A stretch of 64,000 bases of DNA from assembly GCA_004431415.1 (NCBI GenBank), contig QPMI01000084.1, positions 1 through 64,000 on the forward strand, written 5' to 3'. Each line of letters starts with the position of its first letter. Position 1 is the stretch's first letter. Positions 11,080 to 54,033 of this stretch are shown here, piece after piece. Source of the stretch: Cyanophora paradoxa CCMP329. Taxonomy: Eukaryota; Plantae; Glaucophyta. Made by a program: the position numbers and the translations under genes. The notes below the pieces were generated by a model that searched no databases, was not told the origin of the DNA, and saw nothing but the letters and a program-made list of their open reading frames with translations.

Positions 11080-11100
11080 TTTGCCCTAGGTTCAGAAAAA

Positions 11101-29488: not shown

Positions 29489-29530
29489 GAGTCCCGAGTC
29501 CCGAGCCCCGAGTCCCGAGTCCCGAGTCCC
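29489..29530 (-). repeat. (GGGACTC)6 heptamer array (duplicate at 33036-33077)
   Basis: GAGTCCC x6, one variant copy. Confidence 0.9.
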
Positions 29531-29664
29531 GACTCGATAACACCGGCGATCGCGACTTCGCGGAGACCCCCCCTTCCGTTTTCCCCGCATAACTTTGGAC
29601 AGGAAGCCGATCTCGGCGCGCTCTCAATTGCTACGTGCTCACAACTTGATTCCGGGCAACTTGA

Positions 29665-32600: not shown

Positions 32601-33205
32601 AGGATCGGGATTGGCTGAGGACAGGCTGACAGGATCAGGATTGGCTATAATAAAGCGTGCTCAGGTTACGGTGTCCAATCAAAAACGCACACAATTCAAT
32701 CGGCGAAAGGGGGCATACGGGAAAAGCGAAAGGGGGATACCAAAACACCGATTTTCGATGGAAATCGTCAAACGCTTGTATCTCATCACCAGCTCATCAC
32801 CCTGCAAAACTGAAAATAGCGCCGTGACCGTCTTAACGAGGCTAGCACGTCCATATAAGTTTCATAGGCTCAAAAAATAATGTGTAAAATGCATAGTTTT
32901 TAAAAATGCGATCGCGGGGCTCTAAGCCTCTGACTCCCAGTGACTCGGTGAGCCGCTGAGCCAACTCGGCGGTCGGCGGTAGCCTATACTATCATAGTAT
33001 GACACTTGCCAGTTGCATTTTAAGTTGCAAAGTTGGAGTCCCGAGTCCCGAGCCCCGAGTCCCGAGTCCCGAGTCCCGACTCGATAACACCGGCGATCGC
33101 GACTTCGCGGAGACCCCCCCTTCCGTTTTCCCCGCATAACTTTGGACAGGAAGCCGATCTCGGCGCGCTCTCAATTGCTACGTGCTCACAACTTGATTCC
33201 GGGCA
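29665..33205 (+). repeat. Tandem segmental duplication, copy 2
   Basis: Offset 3542-3547 bp from copy 1. Confidence 0.95.
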
Positions 33206-33447
33206 TGTTGGTGCTAGTTTGACTAGCTAACTCAACCGTGGCAAGAAGTGCAAATTCGCCATAGGCACAAGTGCCCGAAAATCGAGGTGTCCGCTACATT
33301 CTGAGAGCCGGCGCGCGTTCCCATGAGGCTCCACTAGTCATACTTTGCAACCGTGCGCGTATAGAGTAGTTCTACGCTACTACAAAGCGGCGCGGTCTGA
33401 TTCGCAAAGGGCGCGATTTGGCGGCTACGAAAGCACCGCGGCGCCTA

Positions 33448-35800: not shown

Positions 35801-35965
35801 ATGAATGATCCGGTATGGGACGCGCACCCGATCCCTAATTACTTTTTAATCGACCCGGACGACCCCGGATTAAAGTGCATATGGCTTCTCCATATCCTAA
35901 GGCGACAGCTCCTTCAATTAGAGCGCAAACCAAGAAAAAGAACGCACGATAAGATAGACGACTAA
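35801..35965 (+). CDS. Small hypothetical protein (54 aa)
   Basis: GTAAAATG start, MNDPVWDAHPIPNYFL..; its stop overlaps the pPolB stop. Below the ORF-track cutoff. Confidence 0.35.
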   Translation: MNDPVWDAHPIPNYFLIDPDDPGLKCIWLLHILRRQLLQLERKPRKRTHDKIDD

Positions 35966-38900
35966 CAGCCGAATGGAAGGCTATGTATGCCGTCGCCTGA
36001 TATGCAGCGCTTGCTATCGAATTGGGTCAGCGCTATCCGCTTGCTCTCCAAATCATATAAGTGGTGGCATCGCCGTTGCTTGTTTACTACTGTTACTGTT
36101 TTTGTGATCCCGTCAAATAGGCAGCGCTTAAAGTCGTCGAAATGCACCTCTTTCGAGGCTGTCCCGCTCATTTTTACCTTGTCGTAGCTCTCGGTGCGGA
36201 AAGCATATAGCTTCGGTCGCAGCCCCACATACTCCACTATCTTGACGTCGGGCATCTCATTTTTATATTTACCGGGAACCATCCGGTTCTCGGGACTATA
36301 AGGGCAATCTAAATAAGGGCTGATCGCTCGCATACCCGCTTCCAGATCCGCGGTCTCTATATACAGACAGAACGAGTCGGTATCGTGGAACAGCAGCTGA
36401 GCTTGCGAGAAAGTCGGTCGGATCACGTCGTAAAAGAAGCTATAATTATGGAGCTTCGCGGCATCCAGCACATAAGCGCCAATCGCAACCGGTTTATCGA
36501 GTTTTACGTGTTTGCTATACATTTCGAATGCGACCGCAGTCTCGTTTAATACATTCGTCGCTTTTACCAGTGGGCTCGCGGCGTATTTCTTAAACAGCTT
36601 CGTGCTATTCGCGATCTTTACCACTGAGCGCCCTCGACACGATTCCAGGCATTTACCGTAAATAGCATTGTTCATTAATTTAAAGAAGTCGCTCTCGAAT
36701 TTATTCCGGGCTTCCTTTCGCAGTTTCGTGTTTAGATCTATATAGGGCTTCATAAATGCAGCGGTTGCAAACGAGAGCACACGGTGGATCTTAGTAACTA
36801 CGATCCCCTTTTTTACCATATAGAGCAGCATCGGCTGAGACACCACGTAATTATATTTCGGAGTAAACGAGGCGATCAGCTTCGGATCTTTACTGAGCTT
36901 CTCGCCGCTAATCTCCAAAAGCCCACGCTGATATTTCCCGAGCATGTCCGCAGTAATTACCTCTTTACTCACGATCAGCGGGAAATCGCGATGGTCGCCC
37001 TTTAAATAGTCCGGATACGCAAGGTCGACCTCTATAAATGCACTCCGCCCTACAACCTCGGTAAAAGCTGTGCTCGTGTCGTCCCAGCGATAGTCCCCGA
37101 CCGGTAAAGGCTGACTTAGCGCATAGCCATATAGATTATTCGCATCCAATAGCACTATATGTTTATCCTCGCTATTAGCATCGGCATATCGTGTGGGCAT
37201 GGTCGCAAAGCCGCCCCTAATCGCCCGCTCAATAAATTCGTATTGATCCGCATCGCTGATCTGTTCTATCGCGACCCTCGTATGCTTTAACATCGCGTCC
37301 CACGATAGTCCCGGTGCGCTCACATAATGCGTCGGATCCAGTCCGTATTGCTCATGTGCGAGCCTATGTAAATTGCATTTTCGGCAAGCTTTCCCTATAT
37401 AATCGCCGCTTTGGTGACAGTGATCGCGCACAGGGAAGTTTTCGTGGGTAAATCGCTGATTGCATATATAGCAGTGTTTGGTGATTTTATAGGCTTGCTT
37501 TTGCGCCTCTGTGAGCGGAATCATAGGTGTATTAGTAAATAGGGTATTAAGCATCTCGCGGCACAGTTCCCCTAACGTGGTAAACATCTGACCCAGCGGA
37601 TCCACGCCCTCGAATTCGTGATTTTCAACATGCGAGCCCATAACTACATTAAGTGCCACCGACTTTACCTCTCGCTTGGTTCGATTTGGTTCATTAGGAA
37701 CCGGCACCGACTCCATCTCTACCTTGCAGTAGCAGACAGTAGGAAGCCACACCATTTTCCTTAGGTGTTGCAGTCCGAAAGTAATAAAGCTTCCGGGCTC
37801 CGGGCATTTACCTTTACTCAGCCGCCAATCGATACAGCGATTAGAGTCGGTGTGGCTATCGAGTTTCTCCTGTGATCTAAACCGGGACAAGCAGGTTTCG
37901 CAGTAGAAAATGCGCCCGTCGTTTGCTTTATCAAAGGTGGTCTTTAATAGGCGGCTCAGTGACATAATCGTAATATAGTGACCCTGTCCGTTTGCGTCCT
38001 CGATCAGCAGCAGGTTTACCTTCGATTTACGACGCGGATTACTTGACATGTGCAGTGGATAAAAGGTTTGGGTCGCATTGTCGGCGCCATATATATTAAT
38101 TGACAGCTCGGGATTATTGTCCTCGAAACGATCTATTAATGCAGCATCGCAAGCCACCGGGAAATTAATGCCTGAGAAGTCCAGCTCAGTCATCCACCGC
38201 CTATATTGGAACGGATCATTACGTTTGTGTCTGTTTATGTCGTTTCTGTGCAGCCATGCGAGGATAGCGTAATTAAAGCAGTCGTGACCATCGATATTCT
38301 TAATATTTACTGTGGCTCGCTTTAATCCAATCCATTCGGGGGTCTCAATGTAGCAACCGCCCATCGGCGCATATGACAAAACGGCGACATGTAGCTTATC
38401 TAATTTACTGAGCCGGTAGCTGTCGACCTGTATCATCTGTTCATTCATTTGCTGAGCTACACCCACTAACTCAGTGAGAATATTGCGCGACCTTGTGATT
38501 ACGAAATAATCGCTGTATATGTGTTTGGTGATAAAAACGTTAGGATCACTCACTTTTACGTATCGGCAGATGAAAGTAAGTCGCACCTTAATAGCTTTCA
38601 GTTCATCCAGCCTTTCTTTCAGCCGCCCAGGCAGATTTGCAGCGATGGTAGTGAGAAATTCCACCGGATCTAAGATTATCTGTTCATCCGCCTTATAGCT
38701 ATACCAGGCGTATGCTTTATTCATTGCGAAACCGTCTTCCTCATCGGGTTCTATGACGGCTAAGCGCCGCCCTTCGGTATAGAAGCGCTCCACATTTTCC
38801 AGGCGATTATAGAGCTCGTCGGCAATATTTGCAAGGTTAGCTAAGCGGGGTTTTCGATCTAAGATCGCCGCCCTCCGATCGTATTCGGCTTCGGTGATCT

Positions 38901-38982
38901 CGCCAGTGACTAAAAGACTACCTAACAAGCCTAATATTTCGTCTTTTTTCTCTTTTATAAGGCGATTAGTTTGGCGGGGCAT
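35962..38982 (-). CDS. Protein-primed family B DNA polymerase (Polinton type), apparently lacking the exonuclease domain
   Basis: DANNLYG, KLMNNAIYGK, FHDTDS, PKLYA; CFNYAILAWLH; C2H2 finger; endonuclease VII-like finger VRDHCHQSG..ACRKCN. Confidence 0.92.
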   Translation of the reverse strand: MPRQTNRLIKEKKDEILGLLGSLLVTGEITEAEYDRRAAILDRKPRLANLANIADELYNRLENVERFYTEGRRLAVIEPDEEDGFAMNKAYAWYSYKADEQIILDPVEFLTTIAANLPGRLKERLDELKAIKVRLTFICRYVKVSDPNVFITKHIYSDYFVITRSRNILTELVGVAQQMNEQMIQVDSYRLSKLDKLHVAVLSYAPMGGCYIETPEWIGLKRATVNIKNIDGHDCFNYAILAWLHRNDINRHKRNDPFQYRRWMTELDFSGINFPVACDAALIDRFEDNNPELSINIYGADNATQTFYPLHMSSNPRRKSKVNLLLIEDANGQGHYITIMSLSRLLKTTFDKANDGRIFYCETCLSRFRSQEKLDSHTDSNRCIDWRLSKGKCPEPGSFITFGLQHLRKMVWLPTVCYCKVEMESVPVPNEPNRTKREVKSVALNVVMGSHVENHEFEGVDPLGQMFTTLGELCREMLNTLFTNTPMIPLTEAQKQAYKITKHCYICNQRFTHENFPVRDHCHQSGDYIGKACRKCNLHRLAHEQYGLDPTHYVSAPGLSWDAMLKHTRVAIEQISDADQYEFIERAIRGGFATMPTRYADANSEDKHIVLLDANNLYGYALSQPLPVGDYRWDDTSTAFTEVVGRSAFIEVDLAYPDYLKGDHRDFPLIVSKEVITADMLGKYQRGLLEISGEKLSKDPKLIASFTPKYNYVVSQPMLLYMVKKGIVVTKIHRVLSFATAAFMKPYIDLNTKLRKEARNKFESDFFKLMNNAIYGKCLESCRGRSVVKIANSTKLFKKYAASPLVKATNVLNETAVAFEMYSKHVKLDKPVAIGAYVLDAAKLHNYSFFYDVIRPTFSQAQLLFHDTDSFCLYIETADLEAGMRAISPYLDCPYSPENRMVPGKYKNEMPDVKIVEYVGLRPKLYAFRTESYDKVKMSGTASKEVHFDDFKRCLFDGITKTVTVVNKQRRCHHLYDLESKRIALTQFDSKRCISGDGIHSLPFGC

Positions 38983-39112
38983 CTTTTACTTTAAGGGAAC
39001 ATTTTTATTTCGGGAAAGGACGCGTTCAAAAATGTGGAAACATATTTAAGGACAACTCAAAAAAATGACACATAGGAAAACATTTTATGTGTATCAGATA
39101 TAGAGAAACACA

Positions 39113-39607
39113 ATGAATACCCAAGAGATAATAGAATATTGTAAGACACTTACAAATATTCCCGTAACAGAAGCAACAAAAGAATGCACAGACAAGAACT
39201 ATCTCAAATGGGAAAAGAAGAATGCGCGTAAGAAGGTAATCTTTGTTATATCACAAACGCGTAAACATCAGGACATGTTTTTACATCTTAATATGGCTTC
39301 CCAGTTTTACCATCCGCATAGGCAGCACATATGCGCATTGGTTTACAAAGGATATAAAATGTTAATACCACTTGACATTACGAAAGAGAAATGCATTGAG
39401 GTAATACAAAATGTTATATCCGGCTATTCTAAAAAACAAGATGGGGAAGTTAAGTGTGTGATTTGTTTAGAGGTTATAGAAACGGAAGATTTAGCTTGTG
39501 CGCAGTGTAATAGTTCTGTGTGTGAATCTTGCATATCCAAAATGACTTATAAACAACGTTTTACCTGTCCAGTTTGTCGTATTGGGAGCTTGCAACAATA
39601 CCATTAA
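39113..39607 (+). CDS. RING-finger protein
   Basis: CVICLE..ACAQCNSSVCESC..CPVCR. Confidence 0.75.
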   Translation: MNTQEIIEYCKTLTNIPVTEATKECTDKNYLKWEKKNARKKVIFVISQTRKHQDMFLHLNMASQFYHPHRQHICALVYKGYKMLIPLDITKEKCIEVIQNVISGYSKKQDGEVKCVICLEVIETEDLACAQCNSSVCESCISKMTYKQRFTCPVCRIGSLQQYH

Positions 39608-39647
39608 TGGCAAGTGCCTAAGTTAGCTTACTGACGTTTTTTGTTTT

Positions 39648-39866
39648 TCGATAGGGTGGGGAGGGTGGGGTGAGGTGGGGCATTTTTTGAGTTCCAATAA
39701 AAAATTCTCCCACCCAAACATTTTGGGCAAAAAAGACCCCACCCAACCCCACCCTCCCCACCCTGTATTAACAACCATGATTTACACTGAAATTCAATGT
39801 GTTTTAAGTTATAAAAATAAGATATATCAATGTTAGAATGAAACCAGGTGGGGTGTAGGGTGGGGT
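39648..39866 (+). repeat. G-tract/C-tract inverted-repeat module immediately 3' of the helicase stop
   Basis: Same module as at 27363-28380. Confidence 0.85.
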
Positions 39867-40794
39867 CAGGCTTCCACATCTGAATCCTCGAATTTGGTGC
39901 CCCTTTTCTTTGGTTGCGGCTGAGGAGAATCATCTTCTTTAATCGAATCATCATCGATAAGCTTCAACTTTCGGAATTCAGACATCATCTCATTCCACAG
40001 GAAGTGATAGTTAGATTTTCCATTGGTCGTTTTCACTTGAATATATGTAGTCGTGCGCATCTCAGTATAGAACCGCTTGCTATTATAATCGTTTTTATAT
40101 TTGTTTTCAGAGATGAAGTCTTTGAACAGCTCCCATGTCGATGCAAGACCGCCCAGCTTGGTTTTCAGCTCTGTAACCCGCTCACTATCGACAAGCCACT
40201 TCGCAAACATAAGAATAATCGGTGCAGCCGCTTGCTGAACTAAGTAGTATCGGTTTGTTAGCGGTCTGTCTTGACTCCAATTGACTTTCTCGCAATTTAC
40301 TTTCGTCCTGAGATACTGAACGATATTTCGAATATTTCTCATATCATTCAGCCACTCAACAAGCGGGGCGAAATAATCCTTATTACAGCGCTGTTTGTCA
40401 CTCACCTCAATGACCACAAAGCGACGATCATCAGCCTCGATCTTGACAGGGACAGTATTGTTGCTTGTGAAAACGATTCGCGCGAAATTCTTCTTATCAT
40501 ACGAGTCTATTCCTTTGTGCTCAATTACAATCTTCGGGGCTGTGACTATATCTTTGAGAAGGTCGCTATGTTCAAAGGTGTCCTTTCCGGAAGCTTCATT
40601 TACAACGATCAGAATCTTATCCTCCCGATTGTGAGCAAACCGCCCGAATAAATCATCCTTTGGCTTGGCTGTCGAGTATGCCAATGCATCACCGAGGATC
40701 TTCTTCTCAAAGGTATCAATGAGCATATTCTTTCCAGCGCCTTGGCGACCTAGGAAGATGAGGGACACGTTATTTAGTTCCCCCGGCTTTTGCA
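39866..40794 (-). pseudogene. SF3 (D5-like) helicase: 3' half of the interrupted primase-helicase gene
   Basis: QKPGE..GRQGAGKN (Walker A), IVVNEA (Walker B), FTSNN, DDRRF. Confidence 0.9.
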
Positions 40795-41198
40795 AGCTCA
40801 GCACTGCGCCGTGTCTCCAAAAAAATACCCGCGAAAAAATCAAAAACAAATCAGAAAACAAACCATTCCCAGTAACCCAATCTTGAATATCAGTAAATCT
40901 CAGTAAGCCTCAGTAAGAAACATTGAATTAATCGAAGTTATATCATAATCTCGATTAATTATATCTTATCGAAGTTATATCTTTTTTATGCGCCGTGTCT
41001 CCAAAACAATTCCCAAGAAAAACAAACCATTCCCAGTAACCCTATTCGTATTCAACAGTAATCTCAGTAAGCCTCAGTAACAAAAATCGAATTAATCGAA
41101 GTTATATCTTAAATCTTATTTATCGAAGTTATATCATAATCTCGATAAATTATATTTAATCGAAGTTATATCCTTTTCATCCGCCGTGTCTCCCATGA
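40795..41198 (+). repeat. Left TIR of element C (404 bp)
   Basis: Reverse complement of 51933-52336; contains three CGCCGTGTCTCC subrepeats and multiple ATCGAAGTTATATC. Confidence 0.95.
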
Positions 41199-41633
41199 AT
41201 AACTAAGTAAGTTTAGTTAAAACCTCGAAAGAAAAACCTCTCATTTTTTACTGTATTTTTTGAACGATTTTTTACTGTATTTGTTACACTAGAAACAACA
41301 ATAGAAACGACAATAAAAACAATAGAATTTTAATTGTTTTTGAATCGTATATACGTCAATATATCACTGTAATATATATCATATATATCATAGGAAATCG
41401 ATTTATAGTCAAACCTATAACATATCAATTTGTGTATATGTGATATATATTCATATATGACGTCATGATGATGATGTATATGTATCTGATATATATGACA
41501 CACCGGCTTATTCGGGAGATCATGACGATCACGGCGATGTGTATATTGTCATGATGTATATGTATATATGTGTGACGCAATCTGATTGGTGTGCTACTTG
41601 TTTTGTTGTATCCCCCTTCAACTTCTCCCCAGG

Positions 41634-41887
41634 TTTATATCACAGATAACATCTCAGATAATACCTCAGATAATACCTCAGATAATACCTCAGATTATAT
41701 CTCAGATAATACCTCAGATTATATCTCAGATAATACCTCATATATTAATTTTAAATTTGCTGGCTTCTGATTGGTTCATGCCACAGAGTAGGGACTTTTC
41801 ATCAAATGCGCCATAAAATGCGCCATAAAATGCGCCATAAAATGCGCCATTAAATGCGCCATTAAATGCGCCATTAAATGCGCCATG
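41634..41887 (+). repeat. Two 12-bp minisatellites: (CAGATAATACCT)~9 and (AAATGCGCCATW)7
   Basis: At 41634-41740 and 41804-41887. Confidence 0.9.
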
Positions 41888-42130
41888 AAAACCCGGGGAA
41901 TAAACCATAGTAGGGTATATGATCTCACGGTTCAAGTTTCGCTCACGTTTCACCGAAATTTCGGTAAATCGATTATCGGCATCTTCAAACGCTTGTATCT
42001 CATCACCAGATTATGATCTCGCAACGTTTTGCATAGCGTTTTGAAGCGCTTGTTAAGCTCTACACAACTACGTAATCATCGTATTATTTCAAGCTACCTT
42101 GTCATACAATATTTCTCACAAATCGTCCTT

Positions 42131-42889
42131 TCACACACTGATTGTGGTCATTTCTCGTTGGATCCGAGCCATCTGACCCCTTTTAATTGCTTTTCTCTTC
42201 ACAAACTTCTTAAAGCCCTTCATATCATCATCTGTTAGTACTGCTCTATCAGTATAGGTCTTGATATCATAACCTTGCAGGCTAGCTATGACAGTTTGGT
42301 AATTATAACCCCATAGTCTATGCAATTCCTTGTAGGTCTTCTTATCCAAACCACCATTGTACTCATCAAAGGCGCAATTGAACTCTTTCTCGTTCCCAAG
42401 AATATTGAAAAATACAACGAACTCCACATTGCGACGAATGGTAGTAGAAATAGAACACAAACGCTGAACATTAAAGATTACCGAGATTGAATAATGTCTT
42501 CCACTCGTTACTAATTTAGATAACACAGCCGAATTATGCATATCCAAATTTGAACCTATCATGTCATCGAGTATGATAACTAGGTTATTTCGCTTTTCGT
42601 TATTCTCAATTCGTTTCTTTTGCATACTGATCAATCTCAAAACAATGTTATCATCCCACTCTTCATAGATGTTATCGGGATGGGTGATGTCATTGAATTG
42701 TCCAGTAAAAGCTGTTGAACTAAATATAACGATTTGATTGATCTTGTCACGAAGCTCGTAAAGTAAGTATTTTGTGAACATTGTCTTACCTGTATTGGAG
42801 CGACCAACATTCAAAATTCTTGTCGGGATTCGAACCGTCTTACTCGGATCGAACTCCGGAATATCATCAAGATTTACTGTGTTATCCAT
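42131..42889 (-). CDS. A32-like genome packaging ATPase
   Basis: GRSNTGKT, LVIILDDM, SGRHYSISVIFNVQ, IRRN. Confidence 0.9.
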   Translation of the reverse strand: MDNTVNLDDIPEFDPSKTVRIPTRILNVGRSNTGKTMFTKYLLYELRDKINQIVIFSSTAFTGQFNDITHPDNIYEEWDDNIVLRLISMQKKRIENNEKRNNLVIILDDMIGSNLDMHNSAVLSKLVTSGRHYSISVIFNVQRLCSISTTIRRNVEFVVFFNILGNEKEFNCAFDEYNGGLDKKTYKELHRLWGYNYQTVIASLQGYDIKTYTDRAVLTDDDMKGFKKFVKRKAIKRGQMARIQREMTTISV

Positions 42890-42969
42890 TACAGTAATAA
42901 GATAAAAAACAAAATAAAGTACACACCTACAAATAATTGCGCTTCCTACACTAACAAAAGAAAAGAACT

Positions 42970-44196
42970 TTAGAAGTTCGAGACTTTCAGGGTAGAGATG
43001 TTGTAGCCATTAAGTACCATAACATTGTGTCGGAGGGCATAGATATCAACCTGAACAGGAGCGGCATCAGTGCATCCGGAAACAGTGAGATCCATGTAAC
43101 TCGAGCTGCTGTTGAAGAAATCCTGGTAACCCATAACCGAGTTCCGAAGCGAATCTTTTCCAGACTTGGAAAGAACAATTCCGTAAACATTTCCAGACTC
43201 GAATCCGTACGTGGTATTGCCCACAGTAACACCCTTGTAGTGAGAAGGAATGTGATTGACAGCAGAGAGGAAACCGGAAATGGGTTTGTTAGATATATCC
43301 AGGGAGCGATTGTTGTGGAAGATCTGGAACTGATCAATCTTAACAGCAGATTCATGACCGCAGAAATCCGAGTGAGTGTAGGTGTTAAGTTTGTTCACCT
43401 CTCGAACAGTCATCAGAATCGAGTGAACCAGACCAGAAACATTAGCGAGTGTAACCTCAACCGATTCACCAGCATCAGCGGTTTTGAGCGCTCGGGTCTT
43501 CTTGTGAATGACCTCTGTGATCGGGATGCGAATGCCACCTTGTTCGTTCGCCATTTTAAGGAGTGTCTCAGCCTCAGCCGAAGCAATGTTTACGAATTGG
43601 CAGATCAGAGAGCAATCCGCAAAGGTTACAGATCCACCAGCCGGAACTTGGACAATCGCAGCATCACGGAAATCAACCTCGATTGTTGGCATATCGGCTA
43701 GCGTACATAATGGGAAATAAGCTTCTTCCCAGAAAGCAGCGGGGATTCTAACGATGTATTCCATTGCTTCATCTGTGCTTTCACGATCTGTCTCTTTGAA
43801 GTAACCGAGAGAAGCATACATGCTGCTCATGGTAGCGTGATCATTATCGACCAGGGCGTTTACAGTGATCCAATCACCAGGGATAATATACTTGAAACCA
43901 CCATGAACGAAACGGACCTCATTAATAAAAGAAGAACCACCATTGGGGAGGGTGCAGGCTACACCACCACCAGTGGCAATCTTGAAATAGAGCGAAACAC
44001 CAGCAAGGAGTTGCTTGCGAGGTAGATCAAAGTAAGCGGTATTCTTGAAGCCAAAAGTGTTGCCCCGGGGACGAACTTGCTCGAGGAATGGTTTGTATTT
44101 GGGGTTGGTTCCGATTTGGAGACCAGGGGAAAGATAAATTTGATCGGAACCGGGAGTTACGAGGAGTTCCTTCAGGGTAGTTCCAGTGAGTGCCAT
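42970..44196 (-). CDS. Double jelly-roll major capsid protein
   Basis: 408 aa, next to the ATPase and penton; colinear homology with 57699-59147 (F.LPR, V/MRIP, GY.D...S.SS, A..HN). Confidence 0.75.
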   Translation of the reverse strand: MALTGTTLKELLVTPGSDQIYLSPGLQIGTNPKYKPFLEQVRPRGNTFGFKNTAYFDLPRKQLLAGVSLYFKIATGGGVACTLPNGGSSFINEVRFVHGGFKYIIPGDWITVNALVDNDHATMSSMYASLGYFKETDRESTDEAMEYIVRIPAAFWEEAYFPLCTLADMPTIEVDFRDAAIVQVPAGGSVTFADCSLICQFVNIASAEAETLLKMANEQGGIRIPITEVIHKKTRALKTADAGESVEVTLANVSGLVHSILMTVREVNKLNTYTHSDFCGHESAVKIDQFQIFHNNRSLDISNKPISGFLSAVNHIPSHYKGVTVGNTTYGFESGNVYGIVLSKSGKDSLRNSVMGYQDFFNSSSSYMDLTVSGCTDAAPVQVDIYALRHNVMVLNGYNISTLKVSNF

Positions 44197-44248
44197 CTCT
44201 TATGTTTAAAATACCAAAAGAAATTTTTAAAATGCTTTATTAAACAGA

Positions 44249-45136
44249 ATGACGCGTTACTATCTCAATATTGATTCCAGGGACCGATCGGATGGAACCC
44301 CAACTAATTTCACATACAGACTCCCTTATGCGATCCAAAAGGTCAGAGCCTGTCGAGTAACGAACTTTGAGATGTTTCACAATCTTTACAACCTCTCTGA
44401 AGTAGGAACCCTCACCACACAAACACTCGATAATGCTGGGAACCCAAAGAATAGAAACAACGAAGTCCTCCGAGGTGCATATACACCGGATTCACTGGTG
44501 AATTATCTGATCGCTCGCATTGGATCCCAGCCCTATAATCAAGCGGGTGGCGGAACTTACACTCGCCATTTCTATGTAACCTATGATCCCACAACATTGC
44601 TTCTAAGGTTCATGTGTGAGGTTCCATTCTCAATCACTATGAACACTCAACTCTTAGCCAATTTCTGTGGTTTTGAAAATGCTAACACACTGTACCAATC
44701 GAGTCCTCTATCATCTAATGTCACAGTTGGAGCCTTTACTTATGCTCACTACATTGATAGTGAAATGCCATTAGATCTACTATTTAATTCCTATTTGCTT
44801 CTTCATGTTGATCCACTGAAAGGAAGATATGTGAGCAATAACAAACGAGATAACAATGCTATCGCGAAAATTGAGATTGACCAAACGGTTGGCAGTCTAT
44901 TAAAATATGATTCATCGAATAATTCCATGATCGTTCACGAGCAGAATGGCTTGGTTGAGGTTGAGACTCTAGATGTGAGACTTTCTTACTGGAATGGAGC
45001 CACAGCAGACATTACTACCGACTGGTCGATGACTCTTGAACTGATTACTGAAGATGATAAAGATCTGACGAAAAAAGCATTGAAGAATGTCATAAAAGAG
45101 TTGGAGGGACTCTACCTGCCGTTCTCACGGTCATAG
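44249..45136 (+). CDS. Minor capsid (penton) protein
   Basis: YLNIDSRDR..FTYRLP N-terminus; LDVRLSYWNG..WSMTLEL C-terminus. Confidence 0.8.
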   Translation: MTRYYLNIDSRDRSDGTPTNFTYRLPYAIQKVRACRVTNFEMFHNLYNLSEVGTLTTQTLDNAGNPKNRNNEVLRGAYTPDSLVNYLIARIGSQPYNQAGGGTYTRHFYVTYDPTTLLLRFMCEVPFSITMNTQLLANFCGFENANTLYQSSPLSSNVTVGAFTYAHYIDSEMPLDLLFNSYLLLHVDPLKGRYVSNNKRDNNAIAKIEIDQTVGSLLKYDSSNNSMIVHEQNGLVEVETLDVRLSYWNGATADITTDWSMTLELITEDDKDLTKKALKNVIKELEGLYLPFSRS

Positions 45137-45172
45137 GAAATACTGTAGAATAAATTTGTTTCAATATTACAA

Positions 45173-45934
45173 ATGGCTCGCAAGACTCAACCCAAGAATT
45201 TCTTAGCCAAACCAGCCGCTGAAGCGGATGTTGGCAATGGTGAGAATGGAAGGAACTGGTATAAGAAATCGAAAGGACTCGCTGCATACGGAACTGGTGA
45301 CCTCGAAAAGGAAGTCCATAAAGAACGAAACCAATTCACCCAAGCCACTACGAAAAACAGTAATGATGATAATGCCCTTGTTGACCAAGTCCCACTGAAC
45401 CGCATGCCCGGAGCCAAACGAGGAATCAAGAAAGGACAGTTCAAATCATCCACAAAGGACAAGGTTGCCTCATCATCGACACTGCTGAAACTGCTTGATG
45501 GTGGTGAGCGACTCTACTCAACCTATTCCGAGAAAGACCATCGCAACCGCTACTTTATTCGTTCAACCACTGGTGGACTGAAATCTGTAACATATCAGTA
45601 TGCTAAGAGTCTTGTTGATGGTATTGCAGCAGAGACCAAAAACGAAAACAAGATCAAGGAACAGCCAATCACAAAGGAAAAGGTTGAGAAGAAACCAGAA
45701 GTAACCCATGAAGTTATTCCCGAACCTGTTCATGTGGCAAAAGACTCACCTACAGAATTGATTGCAAAGACCATTGAGTATCAAGACTCCAACAAAACGG
45801 ATTTGCCGGTTCTCAATAAGTCGATCCTTCGGGTTGCCACTTCGCAGGCTGATCCAGTCAACTCGATTCCAAATGCTGCCCCAATGGTCTCTGGATTCGC
45901 CAAGCTTGGTATAAGACCCGGTTATCGCCGTTAA
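45173..45934 (+). CDS. Hypothetical basic protein (possible core protein)
   Basis: Intact 253-aa K-rich ORF. Confidence 0.65.
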   Translation: MARKTQPKNFLAKPAAEADVGNGENGRNWYKKSKGLAAYGTGDLEKEVHKERNQFTQATTKNSNDDNALVDQVPLNRMPGAKRGIKKGQFKSSTKDKVASSSTLLKLLDGGERLYSTYSEKDHRNRYFIRSTTGGLKSVTYQYAKSLVDGIAAETKNENKIKEQPITKEKVEKKPEVTHEVIPEPVHVAKDSPTELIAKTIEYQDSNKTDLPVLNKSILRVATSQADPVNSIPNAAPMVSGFAKLGIRPGYRR

Positions 45935-46282
45935 GGATCAATCTGAATAATATAATTTCTCAAACATTGTTAGCGCTACGTAACCAATCCTATCCCGTAG
46001 GCTCAAAACTTCTTCATTTTTATGGAGGCGTTGTAGAGCGAAGTGAAATATCCATAGGTAAATCACTTTAATCACCTGTTCTACCGGTTCAGTGGTAGAA
46101 ACTTGCAGCCGACAAGTGAACCTTCTGGGTATCGGTGGCTTTATCATTTTTCCAGCATCTTCTTTCGTACTGGATGCTCTGCAATCGGGACCAAAATTTG
46201 ACAGGAGTTTATTCGCTATATACAGACAGAAAAACTACTTAAAGATTTCTTAACATATATTAAGAGAGTAGAAAAGGACAAC

Positions 46283-46540
46283 ATGCCAATCAGTGAGGCT
46301 CAGAAGCGTGCTACTTATCGTTATCGTAAAACTGAAAAAGGTCAGGAATATTTGAAAAAGTACAATGCCAGATTTGCAAAGCAAATGCGTGACTTATACC
46401 ATACTGATGAGTGTTACAGAGCCATGAAGATCGTTGAGAGTTCCCAGCGTCTCTATGCTTCCAATGCAGTCTGCTTTGTGAAGTATCTCTATGGTGTCCC
46501 GTATTCTAACCGTGGTCGCAAATCGAAATATCTCTGTTAA
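46283..46540 (+). CDS. Small basic, probably DNA-binding, protein
   Basis: SEAQKRATYRYRK..MRDLYHTDECYR; similar to 54244-54474. Confidence 0.6.
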   Translation: MPISEAQKRATYRYRKTEKGQEYLKKYNARFAKQMRDLYHTDECYRAMKIVESSQRLYASNAVCFVKYLYGVPYSNRGRKSKYLC

Positions 46541-46781
46541 TCGTTTTTCTCAGCGCGATCTGCTCTGAGAAACCCGTGGGAAACGCGCTGGAACCACAAA
46601 TATAATCATTCTGTTATTTTTAGAGTTCGATGATCGAGCCAACCCTTTGTTATTTTTATGAATGCCCTCGACTAAATTTATTTTGTTGGAGACTTTTGGT
46701 TTTGTCGGTAAAATTTGACGCGAGTATAAAAGTATTTAAAGAAAACTTTTGTAGGTATATATTAATAGAGTGAACAAAGAA

Positions 46782-49700
46782 ATGCCTCGACCAAGTAATC
46801 GAATTTCGAAAAATTTGCAGGATGAGATTCTTGGCTACTACATGCAAGCAAAAGTAGAAGACAAATTGACCCGAGAGCAGGATATCTATTTCTTGAGAGA
46901 ATTTACTTTCAAAGCAATTAGAATTCCAAAGTTGATTGATATCAGAGATACACTGAGAGGTATCGTAGAGCCTCGTTTGTATCGCAAGCAGGAGAAGAAG
47001 GAGAAGAGGGCTGAGAGAGCCGCTAAGAATGTTGAGAAGCAAAACAAGAAAGCGGAGCAAGCGAGAGAGCGGAAGCGCTTGACTCCTTTCCAGCAGATGA
47101 TTGCTAACCTCCGTGAGTTTGTTGAAAACTCACCTGGAAACATGGTCACCCTGAATGTGAGACTCTTCCGTGAGTTGCAAGAGGGAGAACAAGCCCCTGC
47201 AAATGCAAACAGGGTCACTGAGAATGGTGTGACCTACATTGAATCGAAGAGGCTTCGGAACAATCGCCCCTTTGGTATCCAGTGTACCAAGGCAGCTTTT
47301 CTGAATGCTCTCGGTCTGGTTCAATCCACCTTCAATACGTTCCCATGTGTTGAGGGGACTGTCATTGCTGAATTTATTGCAGCAGTTATTGAGTTTAACT
47401 CGACCAATCAAGATTTCCGCTACCTAAAACTAATTGAGCAAGATACCTACCCCGATATTATGACAATTGAAAGAGTCATCACGACAGATAATGAAGAATA
47501 CATCCCAAGAAATGAACAAGTCCTCAGAGACAATACAAACGCTCCAATGATTATTTCGAATTTCATTAAAAACGAAGGGAACCCCCAAGCCACCACATTC
47601 AAGGAAATGTTCTTGAAAGGTGATTCATTCAAGGTTGGGAAGTGTGTTTTCGATGTCCTCATCAAATGGTTTGGAGGAGCGTTTGAGAAGGCTAAGACCA
47701 AAGGGAAATACAAGCGAATCGATTGGTCTTACAACGGACTCTTTAAGATGGTGAATGGGCGAGACCCTGTTGAAGGAGATGATTGGGGCATTTCTTTCAA
47801 GTCCATTTCGGAGAAGGTTCTTGACCCACTGCGCCTAGGCATGGTTACAATTGGAAAGGACGACAGAACCCCTGTCCCTGAACTGACTTTCCTGCCCAAG
47901 ACCAGGAACACACACTTGACCCCTTCTGTTGCATATGTGAAGATTGAGAATGGTCACATGTATTTGTTAAATCACAATATTAAGGCTCTCACACAGTCCT
48001 TCAATGGCTCCAAGCCAAAAGATACCAATGTTCCACTCAGTTCTCGTTACAAGATTATAAAGCAAAGAAGGTTCAAGGAGTTTGCCACAAATCCCGATGA
48101 CATTCTGAGAATTGTCAGGTCTGACAATCCAAAGAACCAATCGAGCATTCGAATCTGCTATGGTGGTTCACTGGATGAACTACTCAGAGAGTTCATTGTG
48201 GTGCATAATTATCAGGTCCAACCTGGGTTCTCCCAAATCGGAAAGGCAACCCATATTCGTTTCACTATTGACGATAAGGATGTTGTCGTGACCCCACCTG
48301 GTAACGATACAGATGTGGAAACAGCTTTCGAGATTAGCTTCAAGAATGCTGAGTACAGAGATAAATTCGAGAAACTAAATCTGGATATGTATAGGTCTCT
48401 AATCAACACTTCCAACAAGAGTACTTACAATGAGCAAACCATAAATGCATTCAAGAATGGAGTGCAGACTGCCCTTCGTGGTCTCTTTGATGTGGATGAG
48501 GAGACCTTTGATGAAATTCGCTATAACACAGATATTTACGAGTTCGATATGTGCAAAGCATACCCTTACATTGTAGCCTTGATGATCAAATTCGTTCCTG
48601 TTCTCAGCAAGTTCGATGTCTTCAAGAGTGTGACAATCACAGATGCAGAGCAAATCGAGGAATACAGCTTCTATTACGTGAAACTGGACGACAAATACTT
48701 TTTCAAAGCCAAAGACAAGAACGGAAAGGAGTACGAAGCAAACACCTACAACAGATACAAGAGGATGATCATTGATTCCAAGTACAATGTTGTTCCTGGT
48801 TTGGTTCTCAAAAAGCATTTCGAGGATTTCAAGGATGACATCTCCATCAAAGCGGTTCTGCGACCTTACAAACTCATTCCCAACCTTGCAGGCAACACAG
48901 TTGCTCGAATCTTAGATAGCGACCTCGATCCTGTTGATAAGAAGCAGATCTTGGTGAGTGCAATTGGGCAAACTGGAAAGCAACGAAATAGCAGAGTGAA
49001 AACCACCATTTTCCACAACAGAGACGATGCGATCGAGTTCCAGAAACAGAACGGAGGGGAGGTTAAAATTTACCTCTTTGGTGAGACTCTTGCCACTTAT
49101 GAGGAGACAGAGTTCGTTCTGTGTGAGGAAGAGATGACCGAACCCCATATCTACTATGTCAATCAGGTAGCAGAAAAGCAGCTCATTGATGGCTTCATGC
49201 CATTGTACACTACCCTCTTGTCAATTATGAGGATGTGTATGTATGAGAAGTGTGTCGAACTCGCTAAACAGCAGATCCGACCACTCGCTTTGAACACCGA
49301 TTGTGTTTATGGGATCGCTTATGAACCCATTGCCCCAGTGTCATTCGATCGCAATGCCTTTGAGAATATTGGAAAATTCAGTGTGAAATGCTGCCCCAAT
49401 TTTTCTAAAAAGTTTTCAGGTGAGAAGAAAGACCTCGAGGCAAAACGAATTCGTTACGGAAAGTTTGAGAGAGCGACTGACTTTGTGAAAATCGAGAACT
49501 ACAGTTATACCAAACACTCTGTGGTTGATGAGTATGACACAACCGCGATTTGTGATTTGCTGGCTACACAAAAACGATGGGTTCTTCTCGGATCAGTTCC
49601 AGGAGTTGGAAAGACTCACATGACAGTTGAATATGGGAAGCGTTTCAAAAATCCCCTCTATATTGTTCCGACCAACAAGCGAGTGAAGGAAATGAAAGAG

Positions 49701-50870
49701 CAAGGATTGAAAAATGTGAAGACAATCTATGATGCCCTTCATCTCAAAATCGATGAGTCGAACATGGATGAAATCGTAGGAGGGAATGCATCTGGTTTGG
49801 TAGAATTTGATTGCATTGTTATTGATGAGATCTGTCAGTTTAAGATTGGAGAACTGGCAGCCCTGGACCACATCATGAATGAGCAGTTCCCAGATAAGGT
49901 ATACATTGCCACAGGTGACCCGTATCAGAACCCACCCATTCAGGATATGAGTGTTGATCAAGATGAGTATTACCTTGATATCCTCCATCGCCTGTTCCCC
50001 AACGAATTGTTACTCCAAGTGAACAAGCGCCATGAGACTGAGGAAGATCGCAGAAAGGTTGAGCAAATTCGAATTGATTTATTCGAGAAAGGTTTGAGTG
50101 TAAGTGAGGTCCTAGCAAAGTACGGGTTCAAGGTTGTGGACGAATTGGCAAAGACAGATAAAGGCATTGTGTATACAAACCGCAAGGGTGCAGAGGTGAA
50201 CCTAGCCCTTCACAAAATGAACTACGGGGATAATGTTTCCATTTATGCTGGCGGGATCAAAGTTGTTGCAAAGACTCGTATTGCAAAGGGTGGGAAGATA
50301 GTTCATAATGGATTTGTCTACAAGATTGTCAAGCTCTCAAAGGACAGTTTCATTATTGCTGACATTGCCAACAAGAAGGATGAGATTGTTCTCAGCAGGG
50401 ATGCAGTCAAACATTTCGCCCTGGCTTACGCAAACACCTGCCATGTTGTTCAAGGTGATACGATTCGCTGCAAAGGGAACAGGGTAGTCGTGTTCGAAAC
50501 TGGGGCGCCATTTGTTTCAAAGAAGTGGCTATATGTTGCTCTCACTCGAACCACAAGGCTGGATGATGTTGTTATTTACCATGATAATTTCGAAATGGCT
50601 CACTGGAAAGTGTGGAAAAGAGAGAATAACGAGAAGATTTCGACTTACAAGGATCAGGACCGAGCAGCAAACAGACAATTCGATGAGCATGATTACATCA
50701 CATGGGATTGGATCAAGCAGCGATATGGGAAGCAGTATGGGCATTGCCTGCGATGCTACAATGCCATGGACTTTGAAGATATTTCGGTAGATCGAATTAA
50801 TAATGCTGTGGCTCACATTACCAAAAATTGTTTCCTCTCTCATATTAAGTGTAACTGTGCCGCCCAATAA
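46782..50870 (+). CDS. Divergent pPolB - SF1 helicase - HNH-like fusion
   Basis: Pol motifs YEFDMCKAYP, KQILVSAIG, LNTDCVY. SF1 motifs GSVPGVGKT, IVIDE, TGDPYQNPP, YANTCHVVQGDT, LYVALTR. C-terminal CLRC..SVDRINN..H...NC...H..CN. Confidence 0.85.
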   Translation: MPRPSNRISKNLQDEILGYYMQAKVEDKLTREQDIYFLREFTFKAIRIPKLIDIRDTLRGIVEPRLYRKQEKKEKRAERAAKNVEKQNKKAEQARERKRLTPFQQMIANLREFVENSPGNMVTLNVRLFRELQEGEQAPANANRVTENGVTYIESKRLRNNRPFGIQCTKAAFLNALGLVQSTFNTFPCVEGTVIAEFIAAVIEFNSTNQDFRYLKLIEQDTYPDIMTIERVITTDNEEYIPRNEQVLRDNTNAPMIISNFIKNEGNPQATTFKEMFLKGDSFKVGKCVFDVLIKWFGGAFEKAKTKGKYKRIDWSYNGLFKMVNGRDPVEGDDWGISFKSISEKVLDPLRLGMVTIGKDDRTPVPELTFLPKTRNTHLTPSVAYVKIENGHMYLLNHNIKALTQSFNGSKPKDTNVPLSSRYKIIKQRRFKEFATNPDDILRIVRSDNPKNQSSIRICYGGSLDELLREFIVVHNYQVQPGFSQIGKATHIRFTIDDKDVVVTPPGNDTDVETAFEISFKNAEYRDKFEKLNLDMYRSLINTSNKSTYNEQTINAFKNGVQTALRGLFDVDEETFDEIRYNTDIYEFDMCKAYPYIVALMIKFVPVLSKFDVFKSVTITDAEQIEEYSFYYVKLDDKYFFKAKDKNGKEYEANTYNRYKRMIIDSKYNVVPGLVLKKHFEDFKDDISIKAVLRPYKLIPNLAGNTVARILDSDLDPVDKKQILVSAIGQTGKQRNSRVKTTIFHNRDDAIEFQKQNGGEVKIYLFGETLATYEETEFVLCEEEMTEPHIYYVNQVAEKQLIDGFMPLYTTLLSIMRMCMYEKCVELAKQQIRPLALNTDCVYGIAYEPIAPVSFDRNAFENIGKFSVKCCPNFSKKFSGEKKDLEAKRIRYGKFERATDFVKIENYSYTKHSVVDEYDTTAICDLLATQKRWVLLGSVPGVGKTHMTVEYGKRFKNPLYIVPTNKRVKEMKEQGLKNVKTIYDALHLKIDESNMDEIVGGNASGLVEFDCIVIDEICQFKIGELAALDHIMNEQFPDKVYIATGDPYQNPPIQDMSVDQDEYYLDILHRLFPNELLLQVNKRHETEEDRRKVEQIRIDLFEKGLSVSEVLAKYGFKVVDELAKTDKGIVYTNRKGAEVNLALHKMNYGDNVSIYAGGIKVVAKTRIAKGGKIVHNGFVYKIVKLSKDSFIIADIANKKDEIVLSRDAVKHFALAYANTCHVVQGDTIRCKGNRVVVFETGAPFVSKKWLYVALTRTTRLDDVVIYHDNFEMAHWKVWKRENNEKISTYKDQDRAANRQFDEHDYITWDWIKQRYGKQYGHCLRCYNAMDFEDISVDRINNAVAHITKNCFLSHIKCNCAAQ

Positions 50871-51931
50871 TGGATAGTGTATTATCATTCAAAAAGTATA
50901 GGCAGAAACTGATTAATGAAAAAGTGAGTTTTGATGAAAAAGAGTTGAAAAAGAAGTTCAAAAACTCAGAACTCCAGCAAATTTACAAGAAACCAAGGAA
51001 ACCCAAATCGTTTCTTCGCATAGTGGCAAAGCCTAGATCGTTTCAAATCGATATAACATATTTCAGAGGGTTTCAGACTGCCAACAATGGCATTTTCAAA
51101 ATGCTTAGTTTCGTAGACATACTTAGTCGCAAAGGATTTGTTTATCCTTTTAAAAACAGCAGTGAGATCCCGAGCATTTTAAATAGGTTCAAGCAAGAAG
51201 CAGGCAAAGTTAATGCTCTCTCTGGGGATAATGAGTTTTCCCAGGCAGTATACCGAAATTGGTGCAGTGAACATGGTGTAATGCTATACACAGATGTGGC
51301 AAAGGATGACCACATCACAGTAGGAGATAAACTGGGGATAATTGATAGGTTCACTAGGACTTTCAAACAGTATCTCAGAAAATCGATGACAGCAAAGGGA
51401 ACCACGAAATGGATCGATCTACTTAGTGATGTAATTGACTTGTATAATAGCAGTCCCCATTCTGCATTGAAAAATGACTCTCCAAATGCAGTGTATACAA
51501 ATGAAGATAAACAGTTATTTATTTACATGAGGGATACTGTTCACAACAATCGTGTAAAGGAGGCTGATACTAATCAAGTGAAACCAGGAGACACAGTTCG
51601 AGTTTTGCAACCAAAGGGATTGTTTGAAAAAGAAGGTGCGCAATTCAGTCAGAAGGTCTACACTGTTGCAAAGGCTGATAGGAATCGTTTCAAAGTGCTT
51701 GAAGATAATGATGGTGAGGAAACAAAAGAAGTGAAGAGGAGATTTAAGAAACAAGAATTGCAAAAGGTGAATAAAGATGATATCATTAAGATACCATCAC
51801 AAAAACGGATTCAGCAGGTTAATAAAACGAATAAAGTGAATCGATTGGTAGCAAAAGAAGGCATAAAACCCAATCGAAGTAATGTTGTAAGGAGAAGATA
51901 CAATCTGAGAAGTGGTTTAACGAAACGCTAA
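50870..51931 (+). CDS. rve DDE integrase
   Basis: FQIDI, DILSRK, SGDNEF, GIIDRFTRTFK, YNSSPHSAL. Confidence 0.88.
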   Translation: MDSVLSFKKYRQKLINEKVSFDEKELKKKFKNSELQQIYKKPRKPKSFLRIVAKPRSFQIDITYFRGFQTANNGIFKMLSFVDILSRKGFVYPFKNSSEIPSILNRFKQEAGKVNALSGDNEFSQAVYRNWCSEHGVMLYTDVAKDDHITVGDKLGIIDRFTRTFKQYLRKSMTAKGTTKWIDLLSDVIDLYNSSPHSALKNDSPNAVYTNEDKQLFIYMRDTVHNNRVKEADTNQVKPGDTVRVLQPKGLFEKEGAQFSQKVYTVAKADRNRFKVLEDNDGEETKEVKRRFKKQELQKVNKDDIIKIPSQKRIQQVNKTNKVNRLVAKEGIKPNRSNVVRRRYNLRSGLTKR

Positions 51932-51932
51932 A

Positions 51933-52336
51933 TCATGGGAGACACGGCGGATGAAAAGGATATAACTTCGATTAAATATAATTAATCGAGATTATGATAT
52001 AACTTCGATAAATAAGATTTAAGATATAACTTCGATTAATTCGATTTTTGTTACTGAGGCTTACTGAGATTTAGTGAGATTTGGAATTGGGTTACTGTGA
52101 ATGGTTTGTTTTTCTTGGGAATTGTTTTGGAGACACGGCGCATAAAAAAGATATAACTTCGATAAGATATAATTAATCGAGATTATGATATAACTTCGAT
52201 TAATTCAATGTTTCTTACTGAGGCTTACTGAGATTTACTGATATTCAAGATTGGGTTACTGGGAATGGTTTGTTTTCTGATTTGTTTTTGATTTTTTCGC
52301 GGGTATTTTTTTGGAGACACGGCGCAGTGCTGAGCT
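51933..52336 (-). repeat. Right TIR of element C
   Basis: Ends ...GGAGACACGGCGCAGTGCTGAGCT, followed by TSD TTGCA. Confidence 0.95.
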
Positions 52337-54033
52337 TTGCATCATGTGGGCAAACCACTTTTTAAGATAATCGAATGTCTTATCATCTTCGCCTGACATT
52401 AAATATAGATGTGTCAGAAAAGGCTGAATCATCTCTTCTGTCACATCCTCGGGGGGCGGCTCCTCGAATTCTTCATGATCAATCTTGAATCCAGGGTAGA
52501 GATTAAACACAGACTTGCATTTCGCGCTCAGCTTTGCAGGAGGCGGCAGGAAATCCATATAAGTGGATCGTGTCGCCCTTGGGTCAGTAATCCATTCAGG
52601 TAGCGTTTTTACCCACTTTTCGGTTTGGTTCTCAGTCCCCTCATTGAGAATCACCTTGTGAAACAGATGGGGAAAATGTTTGGTCGCCAATTTCGTAATA
52701 TCTTTCGGTCGCCAGGATAATAGCTGTTCATCCCAATACATGACAGTGCCGATGCTCTCGATGTGATGCAGCCTCGCATTTAAATATCGCAGATGGACTT
52801 CAAAGCTATCGACCATAGGTGGAATGGGGGCAGTCTTGTAGTCAATATCGTCGGAATCCTCAGGCTGAAACGAATATTTCTTGGGAATAGCTTATTATAA
52901 CTGTCGCTGTTATCCTTTTTCAGCCAGTAAACAATCGAACCGAATGTGACTCGCTTCCCTTCCACCATTTTCTTGCCTTTGCAAAGGCTCATGAACTTCT
53001 CATGACAGTCATCATATTCATATTTTTCGCTTTTCTCCGAGAACTTATGAAATAGCTCTACTTGTTGCTTGCGAGGGATATTGTTGTCTTCGCAAGTATT
53101 GATTATAGCAATACCTACGTCGATCCATGTCTTATATTCATTAGCTCGCTCGCCACTGAGGCTCATAATGACTTCTTGCAACAGTTCAAACGAAACCTTA
53201 TTATCTTTGAGATCCTCCAACACCTCCTCCTTCTTCTTCACAGGTTCTTTACAGGGCTTGTCCTTAACAGACTTGGGCGCCACCGTTTGCTTAGGTTCCT
53301 CAGGCTTTGTAGCTTCCTTTGGTTTATCGACCGCAAAGGCTGACATGGTGTCTACTTCCACCCACTTAGTGGGGCGATCGAAACATTGCACCAGGAAAAA
53401 ACCATCGTGCATGCCTTCTTTCTCGCAATCAATAAACTTAGTGAACACCACATTCTTATCGACATCGTGCTTTGATTTGCTTTGAGCGTCCAAAGCTTCG
53501 CCTTTGCAGCAACGGAGGCAGATCAGGTTTTGAGTTGTTCCATAAACGCCACTATCGAATTCGACATTTTTGATGAGACCCATCGCTTTAAAAAGCTTTG
53601 GAATGTCTTCGTGGCGGCAGACCAGATCGGTAAATACGAAATGCCCGGAAATCTTGAACTTAGTGACATTCTCTTTGATTAAATGAACCCGGCGATGGCG
53701 AACAGCAACCGCAATTGTAGATCCCGACAGGGTTTGCAATTTCTTGCGCATTTCCCTGATGATCTCTTCGGCTTCCTTATAGTTGTCGGCTACATCAGGT
53801 TTCAGATCAACGAACTTGTCCAGATCCAGATAAACACGAGTCACTTGATCAGGTTGTATGCATTCCGCCCATGTAGGATAGGTCATATTGTCCCGTTTCT
53901 TTGAGTTATTGATGCGCTCAATAATTTCATCATCGGTTAACTCAACCAAATTGGACTTATTGCGTGCACCTTGCAGACATTTCAGAAAGGTGCCCTTGAC
54001 ATTAGAGAATGCGAATTTCGTGATAGCGTCCAT
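52337..54033 (-). pseudogene. AEP primase + PriCT-2: 5' part of the interrupted primase-helicase gene (also a -1 shift in the G-run at 52883-52885)
   Basis: YLDLD, ISGH, DSGVY; EYKTWIDVGIAI..FHKFSEKSEKY; FNLYPGF; KKWFAHMMQ. Confidence 0.9.

Follow-up and report, generated by a model that had tools for sequence, protein, structure and literature searches.

A leader similar in two polymerases of nested polinton-like elements in Cyanophora paradoxa, possibly exchanged between replicase classes

The stretch of DNA examined here, called the window below, comprises the first 64,000 nucleotides of contig QPMI01000084.1 from the glaucophyte Cyanophora paradoxa CCMP329 (assembly GCA_004431415.1). From about 27 kb onwards it contains two polinton-like elements, B and C, with C nested in B, and the polymerases of these elements, a pPolB in B and a Tlr1-like polymerase-helicase in C, begin with similar leaders. 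We propose that a match of 18 residues opens a 60-residue leader predicted to form three helices, that this leader lies before the slot for the terminal protein (TP), that it moved from a Tlr1-type gene onto the pPolB gene of B, and that it would serve on genome ends as a handle that either binds DNA regardless of sequence or targets a host factor. We assign this combined reading a probability of roughly 0.4.

The original prediction had correctly placed the starts of the two genes at 38982 (minus strand, B) and 46782 (plus strand, C), and the pairwise alignment with a shuffle test that it suggested was carried out on the first 70 residues of each protein. The local score of 61 was not equalled by any of 5000 shuffles (mean 24.1, standard deviation 4.5, maximum 56). 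The alignment starts at residue 1 and has identical residues in 21 of its 64 columns (33%), and the residues common to both leaders include the basic R3, R7 and K10. Residues 1-18 alone score 57, with 11 of 18 identical and no gap, and none of 3000 shuffles did as well. When the first methionine was left out, 0 of 3000 shuffles reached the score; without the first three residues (MPR) the match was weaker (7 of 3000), and a reversed control scored 22. A codon is shared at 5 of the 21 identical residues, which argues for old conservation at the protein level and against a recent copy of DNA. We therefore judge the similarity between the two sequences to be real, modest and old.

Chance would require two amphipathic helical leaders that start alike by accident. 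The pair was chosen from the whole window, and although the leader is the best local alignment of the full-length proteins (62), the best of 200 full-length shuffles reached 67, and thus it stands out over full length only because both segments begin at residue 1. Scores of at least 61 occur in 22 of 11,938 pairs of a pPolB with a Tlr1-type enzyme (0.18%), and degenerate DNA patterns of the shared leader residues had no match in viral contigs or in metagenome contigs, so no further exact-pattern homologue supports the pair. However, the ungapped identity of 11 of 18 from the first residue occurs in two functionally equivalent genes, the result without methionine and the reversed control both point away from accident, and the cross-class pairs that reach 61 themselves look like genuine shared leaders. 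On balance, we consider chance quite unlikely.

Structure prediction, also suggested at the outset, returned three helices with matching boundaries in both leaders. AlphaFold placed them at residues 2-25, 31-42 and 47-69 of B (from a single sequence) and at residues 7-25, 31-42 and 48-98 of C (from an alignment of 55 sequences), and in these models both leaders are three-helix bundles in the same register. The B model has block pLDDT values of 54-74 over residues 1-60, is poor otherwise and is unreliable past residue 62. The top fold match of both leaders is 7yh8_A, a designed three-helix bundle (for B, Z 8.9, root mean square deviation 1.8 and 59 residues aligned; for C, Z 7.3, 2.4 and 60 residues), and this shared match indicates a common but generic fold and nothing more. 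Fold searches with the leaders returned generic three-helix bundles, without any natural family standing out. A match of B residues 20-39 to SHOCT (PF09851; E 8e-4, 19.5 bits) lies under the Pfam gathering score of 27 bits, and none was found in C at E 10; it adds little. In PMC3581485 the function of the SHOCT domain is left open and oligomerisation is not supported. A PRD1-like terminal protein, defined after PMC11161782 by a four-stranded sheet, two helices and a loop with the linking Ser or Tyr, was rejected as an identity for the leader, given that both leaders are predicted to be entirely helical.

Relatives link the B and C leaders to a wider family of Tlr1-type leaders, and we regard this link, drawn from sequence profiles, as of moderate strength. 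The two leaders are by far closest to each other (61, compared with a best of 43-44 against 221 other polymerase N-termini). Among these 221, the best three for B were Tlr1-type proteins aligned end to end (P0158, P0184 and P0150; z 4.6, 4.2 and 3.6); for C the best two were of the pPolB type and look spurious, and P0158 was third. When a profile of B and C was run over 250 polymerase N-termini, five Tlr1-type proteins ranked first, and 4 of 94 Tlr1-type but 0 of 156 pPolB N-termini scored above the best reversed control; the pPolB set is redundant, and no p-value is claimed for this ranking. Against six Tlr1 leaders the same profile scored 19.9, compared with 8.1 ± 1.3 in 40 column shuffles. 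When the leader profiles were applied to 29 additional full-length metagenomic pPolBs (31 long open reading frames, after removal of two from L014 that do not encode the polymerase), no match resulted. An iterated hidden Markov model (HMM) for a second leader family strayed into coiled coils and was not used further.

The slot occupied by the leader is filled in relatives by C2H2 fingers, Rho-N or 2C_adapt. C2H2 fingers and Rho-N bind nucleic acid. Further leader types common to pPolBs and Tlr1-type helicases were seen in L001 (9362-13147) and in P0179, P0144, P0142, P0146, P0166, P0027, P0038, P0050 and P0073. The leader of the L001 pPolB scored 24.6 (probability 56.5) against a family of 13 Tlr1 leaders built without B, C or this protein, compared with 8.6 ± 1.5 for its control. 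The 12 listed of the 22 cross-class pairs fall into two groups, namely P0179 with one group of pPolBs and P0144 with P0050, and a mixed cluster unites P0027 and P0038 with five Tlr1 proteins, of which three match 2C_adapt.

The enzymes behind these leaders are strongly diverged. The B protein is 29-40% identical to polinton pPolBs (33-40% in the best 120 of 1250 listed), and these alignments begin at residues 86-95. It has the TP and vOTU domains ahead of the palm, as polinton enzymes do, with a differing TP loop, and it lacks a complete exonuclease domain: relative to P0005, P0016, P0033 and P0030 it is short of about 250 residues near residue 540, a stretch that we take to hold the Exo II and III proofreading motifs. 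The TP loop before the last strand (residues 185-195), the predicted linking site, is shorter than and unlike those of relatives. Element B, which has a primase-helicase of its own, carries a mavirus-like reduction of a polinton-type enzyme and is perhaps no longer protein-primed. A word-index search with residues 1-110 of B found nothing among 317 candidates, and the ESM Atlas returned for residues 1-75 two leads under 0.9, which were not used.

The C protein is a Tlr1-like helicase, a published derivative of pPolB (PMC11161782). A search of 1.84 billion representatives with its residues 1-900 gave 128 relatives, 94 of them longer than 900 residues, and the best viral matches of its model are pPolBs (E 4e-4 to 0.01). 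AlphaFold predicts an alpha/beta middle domain at residues 121-235, in the terminal-protein slot, which makes it a candidate for that protein. In its vOTU domain C288 and H392 are the sole invariant columns of the 55-sequence alignment, and OTU structures match residues 252-402 (best Z 6.8, root mean square deviation 4.1, 114 aligned). Palm motifs at 589, 720 and 838 are in register with the B family at low HH probability; the first Asp of motif C is absent, and motif B (48939-48970, residues 720-730) has Val in place of the Asn conserved in the family of B. The C-terminal superfamily 1 (SF1) helicase matches AAA_19 (E 1.8e-7), Viral_helicase1 and UvrD_C_2. Contigs from related copies meet the sequence of C at 46986 or depart from it at 47002-47041, inside the charged linker just after the leader, and these may be chimeras or merely divergent paralogues. 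A word-index search with residues 1-420 of C found nothing among 4804 candidates, no relative turned up when viral contigs were scanned with C, the L001 pPolB and P0158, the 55-sequence alignment provided no usable pattern, and the ESM Atlas gave no usable match to residues 1-110.

Pairwise, the bodies of B and C do not align (score 41), and the original prediction likewise could not align them by eye. Its wording of very different polymerases was nevertheless overstated, in that family profiles of 31 sequences each bring the three palm motifs and the vOTU Cys of the two proteins into register, at low probability and with 13% identity in the palm. The domains in the two TP slots (residues of about 88-205 in B and 121-235 in C) fail to align even as family profiles. 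The register of palm and vOTU suggests that the enzymes share remote descent, with the leader as a separate unit before two unlike TP-slot domains. The proposal that the module is itself a terminal protein is not borne out, since the TP slot lies behind the leader in both proteins.

The leader appears to be out of step with the rest of these proteins. In two Tlr1 leader families, all 20 of 93 pairs with a leader score of at least 61 have a body score of at least 375, and beside such pairs the B and C leaders are far too similar for their bodies, which favours transfer. From these sequence comparisons the leader was probably transferred rather than inherited, and the likely course is a move long ago from a Tlr1-type polymerase-helicase onto the pPolB gene of B. 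The idea of a swappable module is thereby moderately supported by the mismatch with the bodies, by the Tlr1-type look-alikes and by the other cross-class pairs. Alternatively, the leader could have been present in the pPolB from which polinton polymerases and Tlr1-like helicases both derive, and have come down to B and C by inheritance, with no transfer. Both enzymes do go back to pPolB (PMC11161782), and the capsid, ATPase and integrase genes of the two elements are homologous at 24-35%. Against inheritance, the leader is better kept (33%) than the palm (13%), the opposite of the pattern within the Tlr1 class, and it rises above the control in none of the 156 pPolB N-termini; we judge inheritance improbable. 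A route for transfer is offered by work on fusions of PolA or AEP with helicases, in which domains are swapped and nested elements are a path for exchange (bioRxiv 10.64898/2026.10.13.758929). The published passages covered here, among them those of PMC12721341, PMC5499653, PMC13215967 and PMC12220804, contain no report of a leader shared by pPolB and Tlr1-type enzymes; Figs S6 and S7 of PMC11161782 may bear on the N-terminal domains of C.

A possible function follows from the position of the leader. The vOTU domain is predicted to cut between TP and vOTU, so that the part N-terminal to the cut stays with TP on the 5' ends of the genome (PMC11161782), and a leader lying before TP would then ride on the genome ends. 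In the proposed sequence of events, recombination would have moved the leader from the Tlr1-type gene onto the pPolB gene of B, where it would tether TP or TP-DNA to DNA, chromatin or a host import factor. The same leader would then suit both elements. In the phi29 TP, the N-terminal domain binds DNA without sequence specificity and localises the protein (PMC4357725). We read the leader as a handle because the vOTU cut would leave it on TP and because of the other occupants of its slot and the phi29 domain. A role in localisation or DNA binding is plausible from position and from the other occupants of the slot, and we lean slightly towards the tether.

Several observations weigh against the combined reading. 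The original prediction spoke of a shared module of about 60 residues, and of this the first 18 stand, whereas residues 19-66 alone score 23, which 738 of 3000 shuffles matched, and are not significant; a homologous 60-residue domain therefore has to rest on predicted structure and weak links. Three-helix bundles are generic. The six-member Tlr1 leader family was grouped by eye after its likeness to B had been seen, which inflates its score, C alone scores poorly against it, and the profile of B and C does not match the 13-member family (9.8 compared with 7.8 ± 1.6). Neither B nor C was recovered by HMMs of the Tlr1 leader families, and an HMM of B and C found nothing below E 0.09 among 248 relatives; the profile-to-profile comparison and the ranking were favourable for the six-member group. 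The direction of transfer was taken from prevalence, in a redundant set of pPolB relatives no closer to B than 29-40% identity. The TP of B may not prime and its leader may not be on DNA ends, because the TP loop differs and B encodes its own primase-helicase. Finally, the leaders are near neutral (11 K/R and 11 D/E in B, 12 K/R and 9 D/E in C), with a basic linker in C.

The first of these points bears on a narrower explanation, in which residues 1-18 are a short peptide at the N-terminus that docks or targets the enzyme to a host or viral protein and that was copied, or arose by convergence, in this host, on helical leaders that are otherwise unrelated. This would account for the 57 of 61 score points that come from these residues, for the weak SHOCT-like match in B alone, and for the gap between the B-C score and the best of either protein against other N-termini. 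However, the acidic-hydrophobic end of the peptide lies within the first predicted helix of a bundle whose boundaries agree between the two proteins, and P0158 and P0184 follow B end to end over about 60 residues. We consider the peptide explanation unlikely and retain the three-helix leader as the preferred reading.

Recognition of terminal inverted repeats (TIRs), or ends held in common, had also been suggested for the leader. Neither the TIR of C nor the 13-nt core repeated in it has a counterpart near B, in the window from 24 kb on; the ends of B were not located, and its flanks scored 23-30 against a shuffled mean of 24-26 and maximum of 33. What is shared lies outside the TIR, namely an exact 25-nt motif (Table 1) that is the longest match of C to the rest of the window (the second longest has 16 nt), with 3 matches compared with 0.01 expected. 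It has 0 matches in viral contigs. Each copy is preceded by short tandem repeats, and many variant contigs diverge at 42011, right behind the motif, with loose ends there in four of four runs.

One could therefore suppose that the leader recognises a specific DNA site of both elements, for example this motif, and that B and C replicate or package each other. In favour, the exact motif is present in the left non-coding region of C and beyond the integrase gene of B, and the loose ends at 42011 suggest more elements with it. However, the TIR of C finds no match in the B flanks, the motif is about 1.2 kb from the end of C and not at a protein-priming origin, and the copy near B belongs to the duplicated 3.5-kb unit, which may be an element in its own right. 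We regard recognition of a specific site as very doubtful. It would be a similarly long shot that the polinton-like viruses within a single host carry a common, exchangeable address tag of leader and 25-nt cis motif and so form a cooperating guild of integrated viruses; if this were true, replicases that cannot be aligned but carry the same leader would let unrelated elements use one host factor or the replication and packaging machinery of each other. The sequence-independent handle remains the reading that we prefer.

Table 1. Positions in the window of the leaders, their enzymes and related features
Feature	Position	Strand	Remarks
Leader of B pPolB	38797..38982	-	residues 1-62; predicted three-helix bundle
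B segment matching C significantly	38929-38982	-	residues 1-18
Leader of C polymerase-helicase	46782..46970	+	residues 1-63; predicted three-helix bundle
Linker of C, charged and helical	46971..47081	+	about residues 64-100; 16 K/R and 7 D/E in residues 63-100
B pPolB	35962..38982	-	1006 aa; leader, TP slot, vOTU (Cys235, His335), endonuclease VII-like insert, palm (613, 768, 867)
TP slot of B	38368..38721	-	about residues 88-205; aligns with polinton relatives; TP assigned by position after PMC11161782
C Tlr1-like polymerase-helicase	46782..50870	+	1362 aa; leader, alpha/beta middle domain 121-235, vOTU 252-402, palm, SF1 helicase
Element C (polinton-like virus)	40795..52336		11,542 bp; sits in the primase-helicase gene of B
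Left TIR of C	40795..41198	+	starts with AG; target duplication TTGCA just before (40790-40794)
Right TIR of C	51933..52336	-	TTGCA directly after (52337-52341)
25-nt non-coding motif, left subterminal region of C	41985..42009	+	identical to 32768-32792 and 29221-29245
25-nt motif copy	32768..32792	+	about 650 bp past the end of the B integrase gene, within the 3.5-kb tandem duplication (second copy 29221-29245)

The two elements lie in DNA that is AT-richer from about 27 kb on, compared with 55-70% GC in host DNA. Element C encodes an A32 ATPase, the polymerase-helicase, an rve integrase and likely major and minor capsid proteins. Its TIRs of about 404 bp are 97% complementary, and its target duplication is 5 bp long with AG...CT ends, or 6 bp if the last T is assigned to the target. 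The TIR consists of two subrepeats of about 190 nt, with three copies of the GCCGTGTCTCC core. The insertion splits the primase-superfamily 3 (SF3) helicase gene of B into parts with PriCT_2 (52780-54033) and DUF5906 (39866-40726), and contigs of four of four runs contain the empty, joined site, skipping 11,547 bases. The gene of B (52256-54033, minus strand) also has a frame break near 52800, where covering contigs from three runs show one gap relative to the window; this break may be specific to the copy or an assembly error. Differences in contig depth among runs were not read as copy numbers.

Element B also encodes an rve integrase, the pPolB, a RING gene, an A32 ATPase, an HNH-AP2 gene and likely capsid genes, and identity to its paralogues in C is 35% for the ATPase, 25% for the integrase and 24% for the likely major capsid protein. 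AT-rich motifs such as ATTTAAGGA, TTCTC.GC and TTA.AGTAAAA stand upstream of B genes (before 35559, 38982, 39113, 54033, 57624 and 59147); they are likely a common promoter, and their being shared supports B as one unit. The right end of B was not found within the window, and no inverted repeats were found that would set 32.7-40 kb apart as an element of its own. The 3.5-kb tandem duplication (26123-33214, 99.5% identity) has a 71-nt hairpin (27037-27107) and, in each unit, three repeats of 220 nt that recur inside B at 39647-39866, and it could be a non-autonomous element, the left end of B or an assembly duplicate. A loose contig end at 39647 was rejected as a new junction because the repeat family at 28124-28370 explains it. 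Inverted pairs of 7-nt repeat arrays on the host side (11086-11198, 11604-11690, 13665-13751 and 29475-29556) are possibly the ends of small transposons.

Together with the other cross-class pairs, the B and C leaders suggest that the slot before TP draws on a common stock of small modules, exchanged between two classes of replicases, probably in a host that harbours nested elements. Should the leader remain on genome ends, it is also a candidate for bringing these genomes to the nucleus, the chromatin or the factory of a giant virus.

Among known systems, the phi29 TP offers a model for how the leader might work, in that its N-terminal domain is likewise a small domain before a priming domain (PMC4357725), with a helical fold (PMC11161782). 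The likeness is one of layout and proposed mode of action; the polinton TP fold is unrelated, and the phi29 domain has been tested experimentally whereas the leader is known from sequence and models. SHOCT resembles B in the helix-turn-helix pattern of residues 20-39, but the B segment is N-terminal, part of a three-helix unit, below the cut-off and absent from C. The mavirus pPolB has an exonuclease remnant and a separate superfamily 3 helicase (S3H; PMC11161782), and B resembles it in that little of the exonuclease region is left and an SF3-type helicase is encoded by a gene of its own. Compared with polinton pPolBs of the order TP-vOTU-Exo-palm (PMC11161782), B is of the polinton type in sequence but has an endonuclease VII-like insert and a helicase fused to a primase, and its leader is Tlr1-like where relatives have C2H2 or Rho-N. 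The C protein shares with the Tlr1-like helicases of polinton-like viruses and transpovirons the order of N-terminal domain, alpha/beta middle domain, vOTU, palm and SF1 helicase (PMC11161782, PMC5499653); the available text of PMC11161782 describes their N-terminal domains as highly variable and without a PDB match, and does not report one shared with pPolB. A further parallel is the replicase mosaicism of Polisuviricotina, where, as proposed here, nested or tandem elements go with domain swaps in replicases; that account concerns PolA or AEP with helicase domains rather than leaders before TP across pPolB and Tlr1-type enzymes (bioRxiv 10.64898/2026.10.13.758929). The leader of B and C would be a new case of a known mosaicism, a probable exchange across classes in which both enzymes belong to known classes.

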